Assembly: GCA_045598925.1 (NCBI GenBank)
Contig: JAZRVC010000027.1
Span: 847-64,846 of the forward strand
DNA from: Alphaproteobacteria bacterium
Lineage (GTDB): Bacteria; Pseudomonadota; Alphaproteobacteria; CAAHEQ01; UBA3637
DNA: 64,000 nt
Direction of reading: 5' to 3'
Shown: positions 15,856 through 55,499 of the stretch, piece after piece
Layout of the letters: each line of letters opens with the position of its first letter
Numbering within the stretch: position 1 is the first letter of the stretch
Program-made: the position numbers and the translations under genes
The notes under the pieces: model-generated
Seen by the model: only the letters and a program-made list of their open reading frames with translations
The model's database searches: none
Told to the model about the DNA's origin: nothing

Positions 15856-16534
15856 GTTTAAATCAGAAAAAGCCATTGTTTTAGGGGTTAAAAATTTTGG
15901 GGAACGATCCTATGTCGTTTCCCTTTTAACAAAAGAAAACGGACGCTTTTTAGGGGTATTCAAAAGGAAAAATCCCCCACAAATTGCCGATATTGTGTCG
16001 GCCCGTTGGCAAGCACGCCTGAATGAACAACTGGGAACTTTTTATTTAGAGCATCTAAAAACAACCGCCGCTGAATTTTTGGATGATTGGGAAAGATTAT
16101 GCGCTTTAAAGAGTATTTGTGAGACCCTAAACAATTGCCTGCCAGAACGTCAGAATTTTAAAATTATATATGACAATTTATTATTGTTTTTCAAAAATTT
16201 AAATAACGAATTTTATGTAAAAGATTATATTATTTTTGAACTAATTTTACTCAAAGAATTGGGGTTTGGATTGGATTTAACGTCCTGTGCGGGCGGGGGC
16301 GATAAAAATCATCTAATTTACGTTTCCCCAAAAACAGGACACGCGGTCAGTCAAGAAGTCGGCGCCCCCTATCGCGATAAACTTCTACCCCTGCCCGCTT
16401 TCCTGATTAAAAATACAATTCCGTCTTTGGAAGACCTGAAAAACGGTTTAAATTTAACGGGCTATTTTTTAACAAAACACTCCCCAAAAAACTTTTTACC
16501 ACGCGAACGCACCTTTTTAATAAAAAAGAAATAA
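15848..16534 (+). CDS. recO: DNA repair protein RecO
   Basis: I set the start at MPEFKSEKAIVLGVKNFGERSYVVSLLTKENG..., which overlaps the era stop by 8 nt. The track start 15782 lies inside era. Confidence 0.8.
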   Translation: MPEFKSEKAIVLGVKNFGERSYVVSLLTKENGRFLGVFKRKNPPQIADIVSARWQARLNEQLGTFYLEHLKTTAAEFLDDWERLCALKSICETLNNCLPERQNFKIIYDNLLLFFKNLNNEFYVKDYIIFELILLKELGFGLDLTSCAGGGDKNHLIYVSPKTGHAVSQEVGAPYRDKLLPLPAFLIKNTIPSLEDLKNGLNLTGYFLTKHSPKNFLPRERTFLIKKK

Positions 16535-16539
16535 TTTCC

Positions 16540-16569
16540 TTGACGAACAAGGCAAAAATAAACTATACT
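16540..16569 (+). promoter_or_regulatory. Sigma70-like promoter for the 16590 / xseB-ispA-nth transcription unit
   Basis: -35 TTGACG (16540..16545), 18-nt spacer, -10 TATACT (16564..16569). RBS GGAGG lies 5 nt before the ATG at 16590. Confidence 0.5.
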
Positions 16570-16589
16570 ATCTTTGATTGGAGGATCAC

Positions 16590-16985
16590 ATGACCACAGA
16601 AATAGATTTAACAGACCATATACATCAATTAAAACTTCTTTTAAAGACCGCAAAAGACCCTAAACTTTTATGGGAAGAAATGCAAATTTTGGGTAAAAAA
16701 GCCTTTAATTTACAGGAAAAAATAGAAAAAGAGTTAAAAGAGTTAGAACAATCCGCCAAAGAAATTACCGCGGTTCAAATGATTTACGAAACACGGGAAA
16801 GTATGTGGGATATTATGAATCAAATTGCGACCAAAGAATTAGAATTAAAGAATAAACCCCACCCCGCCACCATGCCGGAACATCATTGTTGTTGCCACCA
16901 TCACGGCGAAGGATGTTGCTGTCATGAAGAAAAAAGCCAGAAAAAATGTTGTTGTAAAGGAAAAAAGAAATGTCAAAAGAAATAA
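16590..16985 (+). CDS. Coiled-coil protein with a Cys/His/Lys-rich metal-binding-like tail
   Basis: MTTEIDLTDHIHQLKLL... The C-terminus is ...HHCCCHHHGEGCCCHEEKSQKKCCCKGKKKCQKK. The 3' end overlaps the xseB start by 16 nt. Confidence 0.55.
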   Translation: MTTEIDLTDHIHQLKLLLKTAKDPKLLWEEMQILGKKAFNLQEKIEKELKELEQSAKEITAVQMIYETRESMWDIMNQIATKELELKNKPHPATMPEHHCCCHHHGEGCCCHEEKSQKKCCCKGKKKCQKK

Positions 16986-17215
16986 CAAACCTTTCCTTTG
17001 AGGAGGCTCTTGCCAAACTGGAAACTTTGGTGGGGCAATTAGAATCCGGTCAGATTAAATTAGAAGAAGCCATTAAAGCCTATGAAGAAGGATGTGCTTT
17101 AAAAAAGGTCTGTGAAGATAAACTGAAAGACGCCCAAATGAAAGTGGAAAAATTGGTCTTGGATAAGCAGGGAAATCCCGAAAAAACGGAGCCATTAGAT
17201 GCCGATAAAGAATGA
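16970..17215 (+). CDS. xseB: Exodeoxyribonuclease VII small subunit
   Basis: The 81-aa product reads LSFEEALAKLETLVGQLESGQIKLEEAIKAYEEG... Confidence 0.85.
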   Translation: MSKEITNLSFEEALAKLETLVGQLESGQIKLEEAIKAYEEGCALKKVCEDKLKDAQMKVEKLVLDKQGNPEKTEPLDADKE

Positions 17216-49678: not shown

Positions 49679-49779
49679 ATGCGTTTTTCCAAAATTTTAA
49701 TACTCCGTTTTACCTGAATCTATCATAACGAAATTTCACAAATTCTGCAAGACTATAATTTGTTTGACTTTTAAAACTA

Positions 49780-49990
49780 AAGTATGTTATTCTGATTGCG
49801 TGGCAGGGTGGTGTCTGCCATGAGGATTTAGACCCTCTAATAGTTGCTGAAATTATAATTCAGCGTAAAATATCCTTCTGGTCTGTTGGACTGGAAGGTG
49901 GTAAAATAGCCATTTGGTCAATATACCGCACTATTTCTATTAATAGGTCTAAACTTCCAGTCGCCTGGTTCACCTCAGGCTTTTCTTTAA
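49780..49990 (+). other. Structured ~210-nt leader / candidate cis-regulatory RNA upstream of the glycosyltransferase cluster
   Basis: Nested stems are present: tggcag-N8-ctgcca (49801..49820); ccttc...gaagg; gactggaag...cttccagtc enclosing about 50 nt. No match to any RNA family I can recognise. Confidence 0.25.
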
Positions 49991-50002
49991 GGGAGAAGTT
50001 GG

Positions 50003-50959
50003 ATGAATAGAAGGGCCGAAGTTTCTATTATCGTTCCTGTTTATAATGTAGAAAAATATTTACCCGAGTGTCTGGAATCTGTTTTATCGCAAACTTTTAC
50101 AAATTTTGAAGTCATTTGTATCAATGACGGCAGTCCGGATAAGTGTGGGAACACTTTAGAAAAATACGCCCGAAAAGATAAAAGAATTAAACTCATTACA
50201 CAAGAAAATCAAGGCCTTTCTATGGCCAGAAACAAGGGCTTAGAGATAGCCACAGGAAAATACATTTTATTTTTGGATTCTGATGATGTTATACATCCGC
50301 AATTATTAGAAATTTGTCATAGTTTAGCAGAACAAACAAACGCCACGATGGTCAGTTTTTCCTTTCATAAATTTATAGATCATCTTCCCCATTTTATTCC
50401 CAAATATCACATCCATCAAATACCTTATAAAATCACCACGACACCCCTTTATTATCAAACGAAACGCCATAAATGGAAAATCCATGTCAATACTTGGGCG
50501 AAACTATATAGAAAAGATTTTATTCAACAATTCCGTTTTATTCCCCACATCACCATGGAAGATTATCCGCATACTTATGAGGTTTTAAATAAAAATCCAC
50601 AGACCGTTATACTCGCCCTGCCCCTCTATTTTTATCGGCGTCATCCCACTTCAATTACAAACGCAAACCTCAGTATTCAAAAAATTCAAGATTATCATGT
50701 GGGATTAGAATATATTCGTCAAATTTATCAACATCAAAAACCGAAAGAGTGGAAATTCATCCGATATCATCTGTTTCCCAACATCTTAAAACAGCAACTG
50801 AATAAAATTAAAAAAGCCCCGATTGAAAAGCAAGCAGACCTATTGTCTGCGTTCGCCATTGAATTAGATGATTTAGATAAAAAGGGTTGTTTGAAATTAA
50901 GGGGGAATAAACTCACACGTTGGTTATTTTATAAACACTTGATTCAGAGGAAGAAATGA
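50003..50959 (+). CDS. Glycosyltransferase family 2
   Basis: VSIIVPVYNVEKYLPECLESVLSQT...NDGSPD...FLDSDD. Paralogue of 11021..11950. RBS GGGAGAAG. Confidence 0.85.
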   Translation: MNRRAEVSIIVPVYNVEKYLPECLESVLSQTFTNFEVICINDGSPDKCGNTLEKYARKDKRIKLITQENQGLSMARNKGLEIATGKYILFLDSDDVIHPQLLEICHSLAEQTNATMVSFSFHKFIDHLPHFIPKYHIHQIPYKITTTPLYYQTKRHKWKIHVNTWAKLYRKDFIQQFRFIPHITMEDYPHTYEVLNKNPQTVILALPLYFYRRHPTSITNANLSIQKIQDYHVGLEYIRQIYQHQKPKEWKFIRYHLFPNILKQQLNKIKKAPIEKQADLLSAFAIELDDLDKKGCLKLRGNKLTRWLFYKHLIQRKK

Positions 50960-52875
50960 CAAATATAAACATTGCTTTTTGTATCAATGATTGTTATTGG
51001 GATAAAGTGGCTGTTGTGATGACCTCTCTTTTAAAAAACCACCCCAAAAAGCAATTTGATTTTTATATTTTTTCCAGTGATTTATCCAAAATACATCTAC
51101 AAAAACTCAATAAGTTGCACTTGAAATATAAAGATTTTAAAATTCACCCCATTTATATGGATAAAGAAATTTTTTCAAAATTGAAATTGACCATTGATTA
51201 CATCTCAATAGAAACATACTATCGCTATCTGATTGCCGATTTATTACCGAGTATTGATAAAATCCTGTATTTAGATGCGGATACGATTATCAACGATTCT
51301 CTAGAAAATCTATACGAAACAGATTTAAAACAAAATTATGTGGCCGGTGTCCCTGATTTATGGATTTTAAAAAGCGATTATCAAAAGAAACTGGGGCTTT
51401 CCCATTACATCAATGCGGGTGTATTGTTGATGAATTTAAAGCAAATGCGCAAAGACCATATCGGCCAAAAGTTATTGGACACGACCTTAAAAATGAAAGA
51501 CCGGATTCAATATCAAGACCAAGATATTATCAATATCGTTTGTCATAAAAAGATTAAAATGCTTGATAGTATCTATAACTTTGCGATAGAAAATATCAAA
51601 TCCGAAAAGAGCAAAAGAAAGCAAGCCTGTATTATTCATTACACGGGTGCAAATAAACCGTGGGGAACACACAAGTGTCGTATGGCAACCTTATGGAAGC
51701 GCTATCATACTTTCAATCAAAAAGTGCTCAATCGCAAAATCAAGGTCGGGCTATTGATTGATGAATTTTTTGGTGGCGCAGGAACGGCCTATGGTGGCTA
51801 TGGATTTTTGGCCAGAAAATATATCGCGAAATATATTCCCGATGAAGATATTCAATTAGACGTCCTCTTGGGCCGCGGCAAAAAGAATCTGCGTGCCACC
51901 AAATTTCACGAAGATAATGTCCTTTTATACAAACTCCCCAAGTGGCATTTTGCCAGTCGTTGTTGGCTGAAAAAACAAAACTATGATGTATATTTAAGTA
52001 TTGAACTGACAACAGATTGGGTCTTACGGCACGAACCAAATCCAAACAAAAAGTTGATTTTATGGATTCAAGATCCCCGCCCGAAATCCGCTTGGGAAAA
52101 TATCATCGGAACAATGAAGTCTATTCAAGACCCTTGTTTTTATAATCAAGCCATTTATGATACGGTGCACTCTCTGAATACTCAAAAACGTGTCAGATTT
52201 ATTTCACAAGGCAACACCTTAAATCCATTAGCAAAAGAATTATATCATCTATCCAACGATACCAATATTCAATACTTGCCTAATCCGATTGAAATCAATT
52301 TTAATTTTCAATTTGATTTATCCAAAAAGAAAAAACAAATCATTTTCTTGGGACGATTAGAAGCACAAAAAAGAGCATGGTTATTTTGCGAAATTGCCAA
52401 ACAAATGCCCGAATATGAATTTTATGTGTTGGGTCAATTTTTTAGGTATCAAGAAGAAAACAAGAAAATGTTGGCTCCCTATATGAATGGAGATATTCCA
52501 AATTTGCATTTTGTGGGTCATGTAGATGGGAACAAGAAAAAACAACTGATTCAAGAATCACGTTTGTTGGTCAGTACTTCAATTTGGGAAGGTATTCCTA
52601 TTTCTTGGCTGGAAGCCCTCTCCTATGGCACACTTTTGGTTTCGGATTTGGAACGCGAAGATTTAGTCCGCCGCTTTGGCCGTTTTGTTGGAACGGTCAG
52701 TGGTGATGGCTTTCAAGGTGTCGGAAAATTTATTCCCGCCATCAAGGAATTGATGGAAAATGATGAGCTTTACACCCAAAAGGCAATCAAAGCCATTGAA
52801 TATGTGCGTCAAACACACAACATCCAACGCTTTATAACAGATTTAAAACAAATTATTTTAGAGGAGTTAAAATGA
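50956..52875 (+). CDS. Two-domain glycosyltransferase (N-terminal GT8 LPS-glycosyltransferase-like domain plus C-terminal GT1/GT4-like domain)
   Basis: The N-terminal domain has GT8 hallmarks (YLDADTIIND DXD; ...HYTGANKPW). The C-terminal ~350 aa have a GT1-like Rossmann fold with the EGIPISWLEALSYG motif. Confidence 0.75.
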   Translation: MTNINIAFCINDCYWDKVAVVMTSLLKNHPKKQFDFYIFSSDLSKIHLQKLNKLHLKYKDFKIHPIYMDKEIFSKLKLTIDYISIETYYRYLIADLLPSIDKILYLDADTIINDSLENLYETDLKQNYVAGVPDLWILKSDYQKKLGLSHYINAGVLLMNLKQMRKDHIGQKLLDTTLKMKDRIQYQDQDIINIVCHKKIKMLDSIYNFAIENIKSEKSKRKQACIIHYTGANKPWGTHKCRMATLWKRYHTFNQKVLNRKIKVGLLIDEFFGGAGTAYGGYGFLARKYIAKYIPDEDIQLDVLLGRGKKNLRATKFHEDNVLLYKLPKWHFASRCWLKKQNYDVYLSIELTTDWVLRHEPNPNKKLILWIQDPRPKSAWENIIGTMKSIQDPCFYNQAIYDTVHSLNTQKRVRFISQGNTLNPLAKELYHLSNDTNIQYLPNPIEINFNFQFDLSKKKKQIIFLGRLEAQKRAWLFCEIAKQMPEYEFYVLGQFFRYQEENKKMLAPYMNGDIPNLHFVGHVDGNKKKQLIQESRLLVSTSIWEGIPISWLEALSYGTLLVSDLEREDLVRRFGRFVGTVSGDGFQGVGKFIPAIKELMENDELYTQKAIKAIEYVRQTHNIQRFITDLKQIILEELK

Positions 52876-53795
52876 AAATTGATTTATTATTTGCCGCTAC
52901 ATCAGATTATCTACCTTATGCTTTGGTGAGTTGCTTAAGTGCGATAGAAAAATCGCCAAACAACAGTTTTGAAATTCATTTTTTGTATGCGGATATTGTG
53001 AATGAGATTTCATTCAATCAACGGCAAGACACCTTTGATTTGGTCAAAAATGTATTAGAATCCCGCAAGGTTAAAATTCATTTTTATGATGTTTCTAAAT
53101 ATATGAATTTATTTAAAGGTCAAAATATCGGGATGTGGGGTGAAGCGGTTTCTTACACCCATTATATGTATTTATTGGCGTCCAAAGTTTTACAATTAGA
53201 TAAGGTCATTTATTTAGATACAGATATCGTTGTCAATACTGATTTAGCGGATGTGTGGAATAAAAAGATGAACAAATATGCTTTGGCCCTGGCCACACCC
53301 AGCGGTTTAGAAAAAGTCGCCGATCAATCCAACAGTGGTTTTATGATCCTCAATTTAAAGAAATGGCGAGAGTTGAATCTTTTCACAGACCTACTGCAGT
53401 TTGGTAAGACTCTCAACAGATGTGCTTTATGTGATCAAAACCTGATTTATCATTATTTTACAAAAAAGCACGCAAATTTGGTTTTCTATTTAGATAAAAA
53501 CTATAATACCTTTGCCCATTTGGTCAAAACACCTTTATCAAAAATCAAAATTTTACACTTCGCGATGGCAACTTTTAAGCCGTGGTCGGACCACCATTAT
53601 TCAATGCGGGGAAATGAACTGTGGTGGTATTATGCACGCATGACGCCTTTTTATGAAAAATTTCAATTACAAATCAACAAAAGACTCTTTATAAACAAAA
53701 AGAATAAATTCAAAAAATTCAAGTGTCAGTTGATGGCGCGTTTTTCTTTTGGCTCATCAAAACAAAAGTATCTTCAAAAATTAAAAAATCTGTAA
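52872..53795 (+). CDS. Glycosyltransferase family 8
   Basis: YLDTDIVVNTD (DXD) and ...ILHFAMATFKPW (GT8 C-terminal motif). Confidence 0.75.
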   Translation: MKIDLLFAATSDYLPYALVSCLSAIEKSPNNSFEIHFLYADIVNEISFNQRQDTFDLVKNVLESRKVKIHFYDVSKYMNLFKGQNIGMWGEAVSYTHYMYLLASKVLQLDKVIYLDTDIVVNTDLADVWNKKMNKYALALATPSGLEKVADQSNSGFMILNLKKWRELNLFTDLLQFGKTLNRCALCDQNLIYHYFTKKHANLVFYLDKNYNTFAHLVKTPLSKIKILHFAMATFKPWSDHHYSMRGNELWWYYARMTPFYEKFQLQINKRLFINKKNKFKKFKCQLMARFSFGSSKQKYLQKLKNL

Positions 53796-53838
53796 AAAAA
53801 GGCACTCCCCCGATTGCTTTGGGAGAGTGCTTTATCTT

Positions 53839-54132
53839 TTATTCTTTCGGATATTTAGATTTAATTTCGGCTATTTTATTTTGCCATAAAGTCGTCCCAT
53901 TGACTTTATCCCAATAAATCATATCCAACTGTTCGGGAATCGTGGGATATTCGGCTTGACGTTTTTCAATATAGGTTTCTTCGGGTTTTTGCGGGGCATA
54001 TCCCACCAAATACCAAGACCCGTCATAGGCCTGTTCCACATCCATTTCAATAAAATCATCAGGGTGTTTTATCCCCAAAGCCACATCACACGATTTTGTT
54101 TCTGAATTATTTATTTTTGCGTATTTTTTCAT
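53839..54132 (-). CDS. Small hypothetical protein downstream of the tail-fibre-like gene (possible fibre chaperone)
   Basis: 97 aa, translationally adjacent to the 54135..55199 gene (3-nt gap). A hairpin terminator lies at about 53800..53835. Confidence 0.45.
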   Translation of the reverse strand: MKKYAKINNSETKSCDVALGIKHPDDFIEMDVEQAYDGSWYLVGYAPQKPEETYIEKRQAEYPTIPEQLDMIYWDKVNGTTLWQNKIAEIKSKYPKE

Positions 54133-54134
54133 AT

Positions 54135-55199
54135 TTATGCTCCTTTAAAAGGGAAAATAACTTGTTCCACAATGTTTCCGTTACGTTTGTGATAAATCAC
54201 ATCACCTTTATGTACGACAGCGTGAACGGAATCTTGTCCACCCAAACTGGTGTCGTTTCTGAAAGAATCAATCCAATGTCCTGTGGCTGAACCTTTTCTT
54301 AAATAACACCAACTGTTATTCGCGCTAAAAGTAATCGTCATAATGCCATCATATTGAACGGTATAAAGTTGTTCACTGGCAGGCAAAGTAATGGATATCG
54401 GATTGTCATAATCCGGTGAAACAACGGAAATAATTTTCTTTTTTCCGTCAGCAGTTAAATTATTCAAACTGGTATTTGCTTTTGTGGAAAGCGCCGAAGC
54501 AACTTCTTGCGCTTTTTGGGTCGCGATACCGGCTTGAGTCGTGGCAACGCCCGCTTGAGTTGTAGAAATACCGGCTTGAGTCGTTGCATTTTGCGCTTGG
54601 GTTGCCGCGGCCTGAACCTGTGCGGCGGCTTCACCGGCTTGGATTGTGGCGGTTGTCGCCGCAGCCTCCGCCGATTCCTTATAGCCCCTAATCGTGCTTT
54701 CCAAAGCATTGACTTCTACAGTGGAATTTTCCAAGTTCGTCCCTTGGGCGTTCCAGACAATCGCTTTGCCCGCACTGGGCATCGGTAAAGTCAGTTTGAT
54801 ATCACTATCCACGGCATAAGGGGGCAACACCATAGACCGATTCAAGTTGTCCGCAATTTGTTGTTGACAGGCAATTTGATAATCCAATTCGTTGTTTAAA
54901 GTATTCGCCCGCAAAACACCCCCTTCTTGAAAGTCAGATGTTCTTTCAACAGGCAGGTCGCGCATTAAAGTAATAATCACACCACTTTCGGGAACGTTGG
55001 AAAGCGTAATACTCCCGCCTTCGCTGGCCCCCGCACCAGACACGGTATAAGTGGTAGCGTCTTGTAATTCAGACCCAAAATAAACTTTTAAATCCGAATT
55101 TTTAAAAATCGCAAATGGAAAACTGTAAGTGGCCAGCACTCCATTGGATACATACCTGATTCTGGGAACGGTACTGGTAATAATAATATGATTTGTCAA
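54135..55199 (-). CDS. Phage T7-type tail-fibre-like protein
   Basis: The N-terminus ...IRYVSNGVLATYSFPFAIFKNSDLKVYF...VIITLMRDLPVERTSDFQEGGVLRANTLNNELDYQIACQQQ... fits the T7 tail-fibre N-terminal domain pattern. The central shaft has heptad repeats TTQAG(I/V)(A/S) encoded by nucleotide tandem repeats at about 54520..54600. Confidence 0.6.
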   Translation of the reverse strand: MTNHIIITSTVPRIRYVSNGVLATYSFPFAIFKNSDLKVYFGSELQDATTYTVSGAGASEGGSITLSNVPESGVIITLMRDLPVERTSDFQEGGVLRANTLNNELDYQIACQQQIADNLNRSMVLPPYAVDSDIKLTLPMPSAGKAIVWNAQGTNLENSTVEVNALESTIRGYKESAEAAATTATIQAGEAAAQVQAAATQAQNATTQAGISTTQAGVATTQAGIATQKAQEVASALSTKANTSLNNLTADGKKKIISVVSPDYDNPISITLPASEQLYTVQYDGIMTITFSANNSWCYLRKGSATGHWIDSFRNDTSLGGQDSVHAVVHKGDVIYHKRNGNIVEQVIFPFKGA

Positions 55200-55392
55200 A
55201 GTATTCTCCTTTTTATTATAATAAAAAAAGCCCTGACATCATGTCAGAGCCGGATATGTTAAAAGGCACGATGTAATAGATACAATCGTGCCTGATAACT
55301 GTTGAGGAGTATAGCATATTTTATCAAAAAAGTCAAGGAAAATTTTCCTAAAATATAACCTCTTTTTTGGAAATTACTTATCTTAAGAATTA

Positions 55393-55420
55393 AAAAAGCC
55401 CTTGGTTGACAAGGGCTTTT
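55393..55420. terminator. Bidirectional hairpin terminator
   Basis: aaaaaagcccttg-gttgac-aagggctttt. It lies between the tail-fibre-like gene and tRNA-Glu. Confidence 0.6.
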
Positions 55421-55423
55421 AAA

Positions 55424-55499
55424 TGGCGACCCCAATGAGATTCGAACTCATGTTACCGCCGTGAAAGGGCGATGTCCTAGGCCTCTAGACGATGGGGTC
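55424..55499 (-). tRNA. tRNA-Glu (anticodon TTC), CCA encoded
   Basis: I folded it manually. Acceptor GACCCCA/TGGGGTC. Anticodon stem TCGCC/GGCGG has loop CTTTCAC. T-arm is ATGAG-TTCGAAT-CTCAT. Discriminator G is followed by CCA. It is 76 nt long. Confidence 0.9.

Follow-up and report, generated by a model that had tools for sequence, protein, structure and literature searches.

In the 64-kb stretch of alphaproteobacterial DNA studied here (the window, i.e., the whole stretch analysed), a gene for a short tail fibre of podovirus type is followed by a gene of 97 amino acids (aa) and faces, on the opposite strand, three glycosyltransferase (GT) genes. On balance, a chromosomal podovirus-type particle appears to have its receptor-binding module, the fibre and the 97-aa protein, encoded in trans and linked to a glycan cassette. 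Comparison with related loci shows that a single low-GC cassette comprises the fibre tip, the N-terminal half of the small protein and the adjacent GT genes and is exchanged as a whole, with a likely junction in the fibre shaft. That the particle functions as a gene transfer agent (GTA) is a possibility to which we give somewhat less than even weight. The fuller proposal is put forward tentatively, as rather doubtful in its entirety: an undescribed podovirus-type GTA whose fibre has moved to a strain-specific glycan locus, often at tRNA genes, where it forms a swappable “receptor plus anti-receptor” cassette. The comparison loci (L-numbers) and proteins (P-numbers) come mostly from metagenome-assembled genomes (MAGs).

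A preliminary description of this DNA had read the gene as a T7-type fibre with a heptad shaft, and both points were borne out. PHROG tail families match fibre residues 9-119 at 3e-24, tblastn retrieves podovirus fibres or spikes from 65 phage records, only over residues ~3-170 and at 27-32% identity, and a PDB sequence profile search returns the Carin-1 spike (1.7e-16) and LME-1 orf22 (3e-9). The Pfam family Phage_T7_tail (PF03906) is sub-threshold for the window fibre (0.027) and precomputed for most homologues. At the level of the fold, the AlphaFold N-domain matches by Foldseek the solved podovirus fibre N-domains of LME-1 (7e-7), Carin-1 (2e-6) and T7 gp17 (9e-4), which are the domains seated in solved podovirus tail complexes. 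The shaft is illustrated by a 21-nt tandem repeat in three copies (54526-54604) and, in the AlphaFold monomer model, by a long helix over residues 163-240 (78 residues). Beyond it, residues ~265-350 are modelled as a compact beta-sandwich with a predicted local distance difference test score (pLDDT) above 90, a putative receptor-binding knob. This predicted organisation of N-terminal docking domain, presumably trimeric coiled-coil shaft and variable, putatively receptor-binding C-terminal domain resembles that of T7 gp17, Carin-1 Dpo31 and LME-1 orf22. Unlike T7-type fibres and spikes, the window protein is short (354 aa), with a knob of ~90 aa and no depolymerase domain, and its gene stands alone in the chromosome beside glycan genes instead of following a nozzle gene.

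The family is large and confined in its distribution. Among 5.8 billion proteins, 813 fibre homologues were found, nearly all of them full length at 320-360 aa; the few with source names are all from Alphaproteobacteria MAGs, and many homologues lie on contigs of 100-490 kb. An exact look-up of the window fibre itself gave no record. The one-genome-per-species data hold 48 fibre loci from about 46 species, and almost every one comes from a gut or rumen MAG of Alphaproteobacteria. When 40 homologues are aligned, the first ~180 residues hardly vary, the “KANKDMDNL” joint is kept, and the last ~90 residues are hypervariable save a terminal “FYPxKG”, which reads FPFKG in the window. Mean pairwise identity among loci is 69% for the N-domain and 26% for the tip. 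The N-domain core of 148 codons is ungapped in 37 of 38 sequences, and its ratio of nonsynonymous to synonymous substitution rates (dN/dS) is 0.04-0.15 for pairs with dS below 1. The shaft differs in length among the same homologues by 7-residue indels and is the likely recombination junction.

A recurring neighbourhood was established from the gene tables of five homologues and the open reading frame (ORF) maps of all loci. The fibre gene is followed in the same direction by a gene of ~95-101 aa and then by a convergent run of glycan-synthesis genes, a layout that fits 33 of the 41 loci with at least 3 kb downstream. The convergent genes include GT2, GT8, GT1, rml genes, DegT, GLF, CMP-sugar synthetase and GT29, and the 123 convergent ORFs left unlabelled by the seeds are again mostly glycan enzymes (GT1, RgpF, hexapeptide transferases, cytidylyltransferases, pyruvyl transferase, LicD, FucT). 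On the upstream side of the fibre, different housekeeping genes are found in each lineage, and across about 50 loci no other phage gene occurs in its neighbourhood. Three genomes of the one-genome-per-species data have two fibre copies. Two complete fibre and glycan modules were observed in the pairs L045/L046 (on one 183-kb contig), L016/L034 and L022/L027; this suggests either one particle with two alternative fibres or two glycans each paired with its fibre.

The composition of the window is in line with such an exchange. GC content is 31-39% in 500-nt windows within 50.0-53.8 kb against 40-47% in the flanks, and gene by gene it is 33-35% in the GTs against 44-46% in the flanking genes (45% in glgX/glgB). 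The compositional island claimed in the preliminary description is real by both measures, with the refinement that it begins within the fibre gene. This is illustrated by the GC content at third codon positions (GC3), which is 0.44, i.e., host-like, in the fibre N-domain, 0.30 in the tip, 0.35 in the small gene and 0.32-0.37 in the GTs; the low-GC block thus spans 50003-54464 and its edge falls inside the fibre gene. The dip amounts to ~2 standard deviations of the window's 1-kb distribution and is not unique, the 9-11 kb region being equally low.

Comparison between loci points in the same direction. Among 300 locus pairs, three of the four most similar in the tip are among the five most similar in the glycan cluster; over all pairs the rank correlation between tip and cluster similarity is not significant (rho 0.09, p = 0.11), and the signal lies only in the top pairs. 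Tips 87% identical, with N-domains at 66%, were found in L024 and L030, whose glycan genes are 75-89% identical and whose upstream flanks are unrelated. Three members of one lineage have N-domains 93-95% identical, tips only 22-24% identical and largely different GT sets, and the two modules of one MAG share an N-domain (94% identical) and nothing else, their tips and glycan genes being unrelated.

The 97-aa protein takes part in this exchange through one of its halves. Conservation is high in the C-terminal half; by their N-terminal half, the proteins sort into discrete classes that vary together with the tip: identity in the N-half tracks identity of the tip (Spearman 0.39, p = 1e-9), not that of the N-domain. 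The preliminary description had taken the gene for one associated with the fibre, which is upheld by its position directly after the fibre gene in 32 of the 41 loci and by phage relatives. The protein matches PHROG 9114 (1.6e-13), a family of unknown function, its own family counts 309 proteins in the same bacteria as the fibre, and homologues of the C-half that are 45-59% identical occur in marine podo- and myophages. Podophage MEP301, which has a homologous fibre N-domain too, encodes the homologue gp18 within its tail-fibre module. The model (pLDDT 94) consists of a four-stranded sheet and a three-helix bundle. No solved-structure relative was found by sequence or by fold, and BFVD returned weak matches only, to uncharacterised phage proteins. 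The protein is a putative fibre chaperone or tip partner.

A candidate for the particle that the fibre would serve was found in related genomes. Among viruses, the closest relatives of the N-domain (45-47% identical) are contigs of 12-14 kb and 72% GC that encode portal, scaffold, capsid and tubular proteins, a 763-aa fibre, a small phrog_31793 protein and a large terminase. A profile of their nozzle protein, searched against the protein collection, matched chromosomal homologues in Acetobacteraceae and Thalassospira and also P0287 (J6Y03_05000), which is encoded in the same MAG as the fibre P0020 (J6Y03_02350), on a different contig. The locus of P0287, L104, lies on a 310-kb contig between housekeeping genes. 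It reads S24/CI-like repressor, three small ORFs, portal, Bbp19, scaffold, capsid, tubular A and nozzle, and then a 110-aa ORF, the phrog_31793 protein, large terminase, lysin, small ORFs and a helix-turn-helix (HTH) protein. In a second species (L110/L111), the gene order is identical, with other flanks and 50-73% protein identity. Related gut and rumen Alphaproteobacteria thus carry a chromosomal particle cluster of podovirus type and ~10 kb. A hidden Markov model of the fibre has no match in L104, L110 or L111, and it does find the in-cluster fibres of L058, L063 and the marine relative L108/L109; in L058, L063 and L108, i.e., the distant high-GC and marine relatives, the fibre gene is kept between nozzle and terminase. 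Within 10 kb on either side of the cluster, L104 and L110 have no integrase, replication or excision genes, and Pfam identifies no regulator, small terminase or antiterminator among the cluster's small ORFs. The marine relative L108 carries a gene of the Pfam family GTA_holin_3TM. In L035 and L024, the start of a particle cluster lies 7-10 kb from the fibre.

The fibre operon and the particle cluster are connected through their control regions. In the window, the fibre promoter contains the perfect palindrome TAGGAAAATTTTCC, which abuts the -35 box, and is followed by a structured leader with a minimum free energy of -36.6 kcal/mol (z = -7.4 vs shuffles). Around 35 fibre genes share the same succession of TAGGAAAATTTTCC with TTGAC, extended -10 box, two U-run hairpins, TTATTATAATAAAAGGAG and start codon. 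An exact search with the promoter 18-mer gives a single match in the window; in each of 26 loci there is likewise just one, in every case ~150-170 nt upstream of where the fibre starts. Hairpin 1 shows compensatory changes in four of its seven pairs. At least one terminator-like hairpin is present in 34 of 35 leaders and two in 22 of them; in the window leader, hairpin 2 alone meets strict terminator criteria. The leader matches no Rfam family. A nucleotide profile built from the fibre leaders alone matches the region upstream of the portal operon in L104, L110 and L111 (E 1e-10 to 1e-8), which is the only significant match in each locus. The palindrome and promoter element precedes the portal operon of the particle cluster, and the palindrome occurs also between the -35 and -10 boxes of the divergent promoter beside the cluster's repressor gene. 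Such a strong promoter with intrinsic terminators closely behind it and then structural genes resembles lambda pR'-tR' with Q. Unlike in lambda, no Q-like protein was identified here, and activation, antitermination or attenuation would be read from the architecture of the region. The 19-mer made of palindrome and -35 box has three matches in the viral collection, all in one unrelated coding sequence, and 26 in the metagenome collection, six of which are further fibre leaders and the rest unrelated, so that no new members of a regulon were added.

These results fit a model in which the fibre operon would have departed from the particle cluster with its late-type control region and come into linkage with a glycan locus that varies. 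The invariant N-domain would dock onto the adaptor (tubular A) or nozzle (tubular B) of the particle. The tubular protein tubeA is the attachment point of podovirus fibres, and fibre N-domains are conserved for that reason (PMC10386132). The hypervariable beta-sandwich tip, aided by the small protein, would bind a surface glycan, namely the one built by the neighbouring enzymes. Because the fibre operon has its promoter and leader in common with the portal operon, its expression would be coupled to the making of particles; the probable switch is a factor that recognises the palindrome, lets transcription pass the terminators or does both. Through their linkage, receptor and anti-receptor would stay paired, and particles would thereby bind cells of the same glycan type. 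Some marks of GTAs can be looked for in these genes. Dispersed loci under common regulation are found, the fibre and the cluster being on different contigs with a shared promoter and leader; a cluster free of replication and integration genes is found in the relatives L104 and L110/L111 only. On vertical inheritance under purifying selection bear the low dN/dS of the fibre N-domain and the 50-73% identity of the cluster proteins, at unchanged gene order, between two species. The particle may be a true GTA that transfers host DNA, or it may be merely a defective prophage.

Several points weigh against the proposal of a receptor-binding module serving a distant particle. The matching of tips to glycans comes from few pairs, and L019 shares glycan genes with L021 and L048, yet its tip is only 23-29% identical to theirs. 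By fold, the tip resembles CBM6 modules and lectins of the TNF/C1q type only weakly (E 3e-3 to 3e-2). Homology suggests that the N-domain docks on the adaptor or nozzle, and the particle itself is predicted from genes. The cluster has no recognisable internal core proteins, only a sub-threshold gp14-like match, so that the particle may not deliver DNA. No homologue of the particle genes was found in the 64-kb window, the extent available for the window's genome, and fibre and cluster co-occur in the same genome in three cases only (J6Y03, L035, L024). The palindrome could also be a promoter feature resembling an UP element instead of an operator, a partial match being present at an unrelated promoter at 16527. 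Finally, all the data are from MAGs and binning errors are therefore possible. A 4.4-kb contig with fibre, small gene and GT2 (L018, CASFFJ010000121.1) is binned as “uncultured Christensenella sp.”, a label that most likely reflects such an error rather than a transfer to Firmicutes.

Mobility of the module bears on how its neighbourhood is to be read. The tRNA-Glu of the window sits 224 nt upstream of the fibre gene, its 3' end facing it. In ten other loci, a tRNA gene of the same orientation lies directly upstream of the fibre (within 1.3 kb), against 0.55 expected (p = 4e-10); the tRNA species vary (Gly, Glu, Gln, Pro, Val, Thr), and several glycan clusters end at a tRNA. Besides the tRNA 3' end, deviant composition and a glycan content that differs between close relatives are the other features of genomic islands at tRNA genes found here. 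Tyrosine integrases bracket the module in L073 and are present in that locus only, and a serine recombinase with HTH regulators occurs at the far end of the module in L016, L072 and L073. From the tRNA enrichment and these occasional integrases and recombinases, the module has the behaviour of an island tied to tRNA genes, which either has lost its integrase in most cases or is moved by homologous exchange. In the window itself, a second copy of the 24-nt tRNA-Glu 3' end was sought with up to three mismatches and none was found besides the tRNA; there are no direct repeats bounding the island across 48.8-55.7 kb, and no homologue of the L072/L073 integrases and recombinases, used as seeds, in the 64 kb. 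The link to tRNA genes drawn in the preliminary description is real at the level of the family, and integration at tRNA-Glu is not supported, the attL/attR repeat and integrase that it had proposed to look for not being detected by these searches.

The same data could mean that the fibre does serve a particle and that its adjacency to glycan genes is meaningless, both being cargo of a tRNA hot spot, with the tip binding some other receptor. The variable flanks, nearby tRNAs and occasional integrases or recombinases fit this reading, as do the divergent tip of L019 next to glycan genes common with L021 and L048 and the overall rank correlation given above. We hold it for rather unlikely: the convergent layout of fibre and glycan genes recurs in at least 33 of 41 loci at unrelated genomic positions, the most similar tips accompany the most similar clusters, one compositional block spans tip, small gene and GTs, and the Rhodobacter capsulatus GTA (RcGTA), discussed below, is a functional precedent.

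Fibre and cluster could also belong to a selfish defective prophage or a helper-dependent, satellite-like element, with a displaced fibre that serves the element's own spread. This would account for the prophage-style layout with its S24/CI-like repressor and lysis genes, for the different flanks in L104 and L110 and for the listing of relatives as viral contigs by IMG/VR. It would leave unexplained the lack of integrase, replication and excision genes within 10 kb in L104 and L110, the gene order kept at 50-73% protein identity and the GTA_holin_3TM gene of the marine relative; moreover, because the fibre is encoded away from the ~10 kb of structural genes, the two cannot be packaged together as one genome. 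Such an element is therefore thought fairly improbable.

The preliminary description favoured a possible decayed or serotype-converting prophage at tRNA-Glu; on this reading, the fibre would be a leftover structural gene and the GTs lysogenic-conversion morons. In P22-type prophages, gtr genes adjoin the tailspike gene, and P22, Sf6 and SfV-type phages likewise have a receptor-binding gene beside glycan-modifying transferases and near a tRNA. The phage origin of the fibre and small gene, the low GC of the GT block, the family-wide tRNA adjacency, the integrases of L073 and the serine recombinase of L016, L072 and L073 are to its credit. Very little probability is nevertheless left to this reading. 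More than 800 fibre and 300 small-protein homologues are intact, strong purifying selection acts on the N-domain across about 46 species, and promoter and leader have been maintained, the reverse of what decay would give; no other phage gene lies nearby in about 50 loci. Unlike serotype-converting phages, the window has no prophage, no detected homologue of the L072/L073 integrases, no repeat of the tRNA 3' end or bounding the island, and no GtrA flippase or GtrC-type enzyme. Its GTs are cytoplasmic GT2/GT8/GT1 synthesis enzymes, unlike gtr genes, and the layout is kept across species.

A role of the fibre outside any particle, as a surface adhesin or glycoprotein modified by the neighbouring GTs or as an anti-phage decoy poisoning podophage fibres, is the least probable of all: GT8/GT2 sets do glycosylate fibrillar adhesins in Firmicutes, the Thr-rich shaft of the window would allow O-glycosylation and the N-domain could in principle compete for podophage tails, but the fibre has no signal peptide and no secretion genes nearby, PADLOC matched no defence family, and the control region is common with the portal operon of a particle that lacks exactly this gene. 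Since most homologues have a Lys/Asp/Ala shaft and the Thr-rich one is not conserved, the idea of a glycoprotein was abandoned. Among the other suggestions of the preliminary description, an adhesin is further disfavoured by the partner found in relatives, a podovirus-type cluster containing capsid, portal and terminase genes, and these genes together with podovirus tail proteins also speak against a tailocin. Its idea of a domesticated fibre coupled to a surface glycan is upheld.

The receptor-binding module proposed here has its closest parallel in RcGTA, in which head-spike genes adjoin, and are co-regulated with, strain-variable capsule receptor genes (PMC10218006). There, ghsA/ghsB (rcc01079/rcc01080) lie beside the capsule cluster rcc01081-01086, and both cases would combine an alphaproteobacterial phage-derived particle with receptor-binding genes that are outside the main cluster and next to strain-variable polysaccharide genes. 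The two differ in that RcGTA is siphovirus-like, its spike and fibre proteins are unrelated in sequence, and no RcGTA chain was matched in the PDB profile search; here, the genes alone predict a podovirus- or T7-type particle whose fibre has a tip cassette that can be swapped, a dedicated small partner and a leader that contains terminators. A split-locus podovirus-like GTA, the first of that morphology, was reported in 2026 from the gut bacterium Faecalibacterium prausnitzii (FpGTA; PMC12946183). It has a ~10-kb head and packaging operon and a second locus with the tail fibre/receptor-binding protein (PMC12946183). FpGTA belongs to Firmicutes, its second locus also encodes baseplate and lysis genes, no linkage to glycan genes is reported, and packaging of host DNA was demonstrated experimentally (PMC12946183); the likeness of the present system, known from its genes, is one of description. 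In the open-access literature, neither a podovirus-type element nor fibre/glycan cassettes were found described for gut Alphaproteobacteria, and nothing was found there on lone tail fibres.

If correct, the proposal would describe a podovirus-type GTA-like element for the first time in Alphaproteobacteria, and for the first time in those of the gut, together with a genetic mechanism that ties serotype to particle-mediated exchange. Tip and receptor-building enzymes would be inherited as one cassette on a fixed docking domain, which would explain how a domesticated particle keeps pace with the rapid turnover of surface glycans. Exchange would be limited to cells of the same glycan type, and a single recombination in the shaft would change serotype and exchange group at once, so that serotype-delimited gene-flow groups are predicted in an uncultured and widespread gut lineage. 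The study also offers objects for further work, i.e., a promoter and leader common to two operons, a new family of ~100-aa fibre partners and small beta-sandwich tips paired with defined GT sets, tips from which glycan-binding modules could be drawn. As regards annotation, a lone “phage tail fiber” beside lipopolysaccharide (LPS) genes need not be prophage debris.

The features of the window locus are collected in Table 1. All six features named by the preliminary description (GT2, GT8+GT1, GT8, 97-aa ORF, fibre and tRNA-Glu) stand where, and on the strand on which, it had placed them.

Table 1. Features of the fibre and glycan locus in the window (SD, Shine-Dalgarno sequence; a dot marks a region given no strand).
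Feature	Position	Strand	Evidence
tRNA-Glu (anticodon UUC)	55424..55499	-	ARAGORN; Rfam tRNA 58 bits
Fibre promoter: palindrome TAGGAAAATTTTCC, -35 TTGACT, 17-nt spacer, extended -10 TG-n-TATACT	55308..55350	-	promoter scan 10/12 with TG
Structured 5' leader	55200..55303	-	folding, terminator scan, conservation
Leader hairpin 1, core GGCAC..GTGTATC..GTG, short U-tail in window	55258-55299	-	compensatory changes
Leader hairpin 2, GC stem + U7, terminator-like	55229-55251	-	terminator scan
AT palindrome TTATTATAATAA, directly upstream of SD	55213-55224	-	perfect palindrome
SD sequence AAGGAG	55206-55211	-	sequence
Fibre ORF, 354 aa, TTG start behind SD AAGGAG	54135..55199	-	ORF map
Fibre N-terminal domain, aa 1-160, podovirus tail-docking domain	54720..55199	-	PHROG, PDB profile, Foldseek
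Fibre shaft, aa 161-245, Ala/Thr/Gln heptad coiled coil	54465..54719	-	tandem repeat, model helix
Fibre joint and hypervariable C-terminal tip, aa 246-354	54135..54464	-	model, alignment, GC3
97-aa fibre-accessory gene	53839..54132	-	PHROG 9114
Convergent intergenic region, 43 nt	53796..53838	.	read from sequence
GT8 glycosyltransferase, 307 aa	52872..53795	+	Pfam Glyco_transf_8 2.4e-20
GT8 + GT1 (GT4-type) fusion, 639 aa	50956..52875	+	Pfam Glyco_transf_8 2.4e-49, Glycos_transf_1 2.2e-13
GT2 glycosyltransferase, 318 aa	50003..50959	+	Pfam Glycos_transf_2 3e-40
Upstream region of GT operon	49679..50002	+	consensus scan only

The locus is flanked by housekeeping genes, with an M23 peptidase and an alpha/beta hydrolase identified by Pfam and glgX/glgB-like and PpiD-like genes recognised by reading of the sequence. 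The terminator scan placed the terminator hairpin of tRNA-Glu at 55394-55420, and in an Rfam scan of 49-56 kb this tRNA is the sole match. Between the two converging operons, the intergenic region contains a GC-rich inverted repeat, AAAGGCACTCCC...GGGAGAGTGCCTTT, which is probably a bidirectional terminator shared by both; this role is inferred, since the terminator scan made no call there.

The GT families assigned by the preliminary description were confirmed, the Pfam matches of the three enzymes being well above gathering scores. The N-terminal part of the fusion resembles an LPS 3-alpha-galactosyltransferase (NCBIfam PRK15171, 2.9e-28) and the GT2 gene matches PRK10073 (2.3e-42), both below their cutoffs; all NCBIfam equivalog scores of the GTs are far below cutoff, and acceptor and sugar specificities are not assignable from them. 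Among the window GT genes, Pfam and PHROG detect only GT2, GT8 and GT1 domains, with no GtrA flippase, GtrC-type enzyme or O-acetylase, and the GtrB-like PHROG matches of GT2 cover the generic GT2 domain only. Because the set consists of GT2/GT8/GT1 enzymes with no flippase or polymerase, and because of these sub-cutoff similarities to LPS-core enzymes, it probably makes an outer-core extension of lipooligosaccharide (LOS) or LPS. Upstream of the GT operon, a promoter-like site was noted at 49764-49793 and a hairpin with a T-run at 49963-49980, 22 nt before the GT2 start, so that the glycan operon may be attenuated as well.

Further observations concern the control elements. The AT palindrome TTATTATAATAA is kept in many fibre leaders and could either base-pair with the U-run of the terminator or offer another site for protein binding. 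Elsewhere in the window (16527-16990), the palindrome and -35 box recur as a partial copy, AGAAATAATTTCCTTGAC, which forms a strong promoter, and the TTTCCTTGAC part may be a general strong-promoter feature in the organism of the window. The ORF behind it encodes ~137 aa (about 16571-16984) with a Cys/His-rich C-terminus, CCCHHHGEGCCCHEE...CCCKGKKKCQ, and is followed by an xseB-like gene. At the promoter-proximal ends of the glycan clusters in L016 (13.6-15.2 kb), L072 (17.0-20.1), L073 (15.0-18.1) and L022 (7.4-8.3), a ~340-aa multi-HTH protein, a small HTH_3 protein and a serine recombinase (resolvase/invertase) are encoded, a set that may confer phase-variable or invertible control of the glycan operon.

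Distant fibres follow another arrangement. In L051 (9.9-12.9 kb), L053 and L054, longer fibres of 479-756 aa are followed by a DUF4376 protein, which resembles tail-fibre-assembly proteins and stands in place of the ~100-aa protein; the two are not detectably related by hhalign (probability 7%). The fibres of L051 and L054 are preceded by three conserved proteins of unknown function (about 210, 235 and 208 aa), and a tRNA-Ser lies near the fibre in L051 and L053. L051 and L054 were considered as prophages and rejected, their neighbours being housekeeping genes (Dus, TrkA, HflX, MFS transporter). Besides, structural-only podovirus-type clusters of 12-15 kb were noticed in chromosomes of high-GC Alphaproteobacteria (L058-L065 from IMG/VR; P0247-P0276) and in the marine L108, in hosts that include Roseomonas, Falsiroseomonas, Elioraea, Caldovatus and Thalassospira, one of the genomes being complete at 5.3 Mb. 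These clusters encode repressor, portal, capsid, tubular proteins, fibre, terminase and lysis genes; genes for replication or integration were not seen in them. They may form a wider, undescribed GTA-like family.

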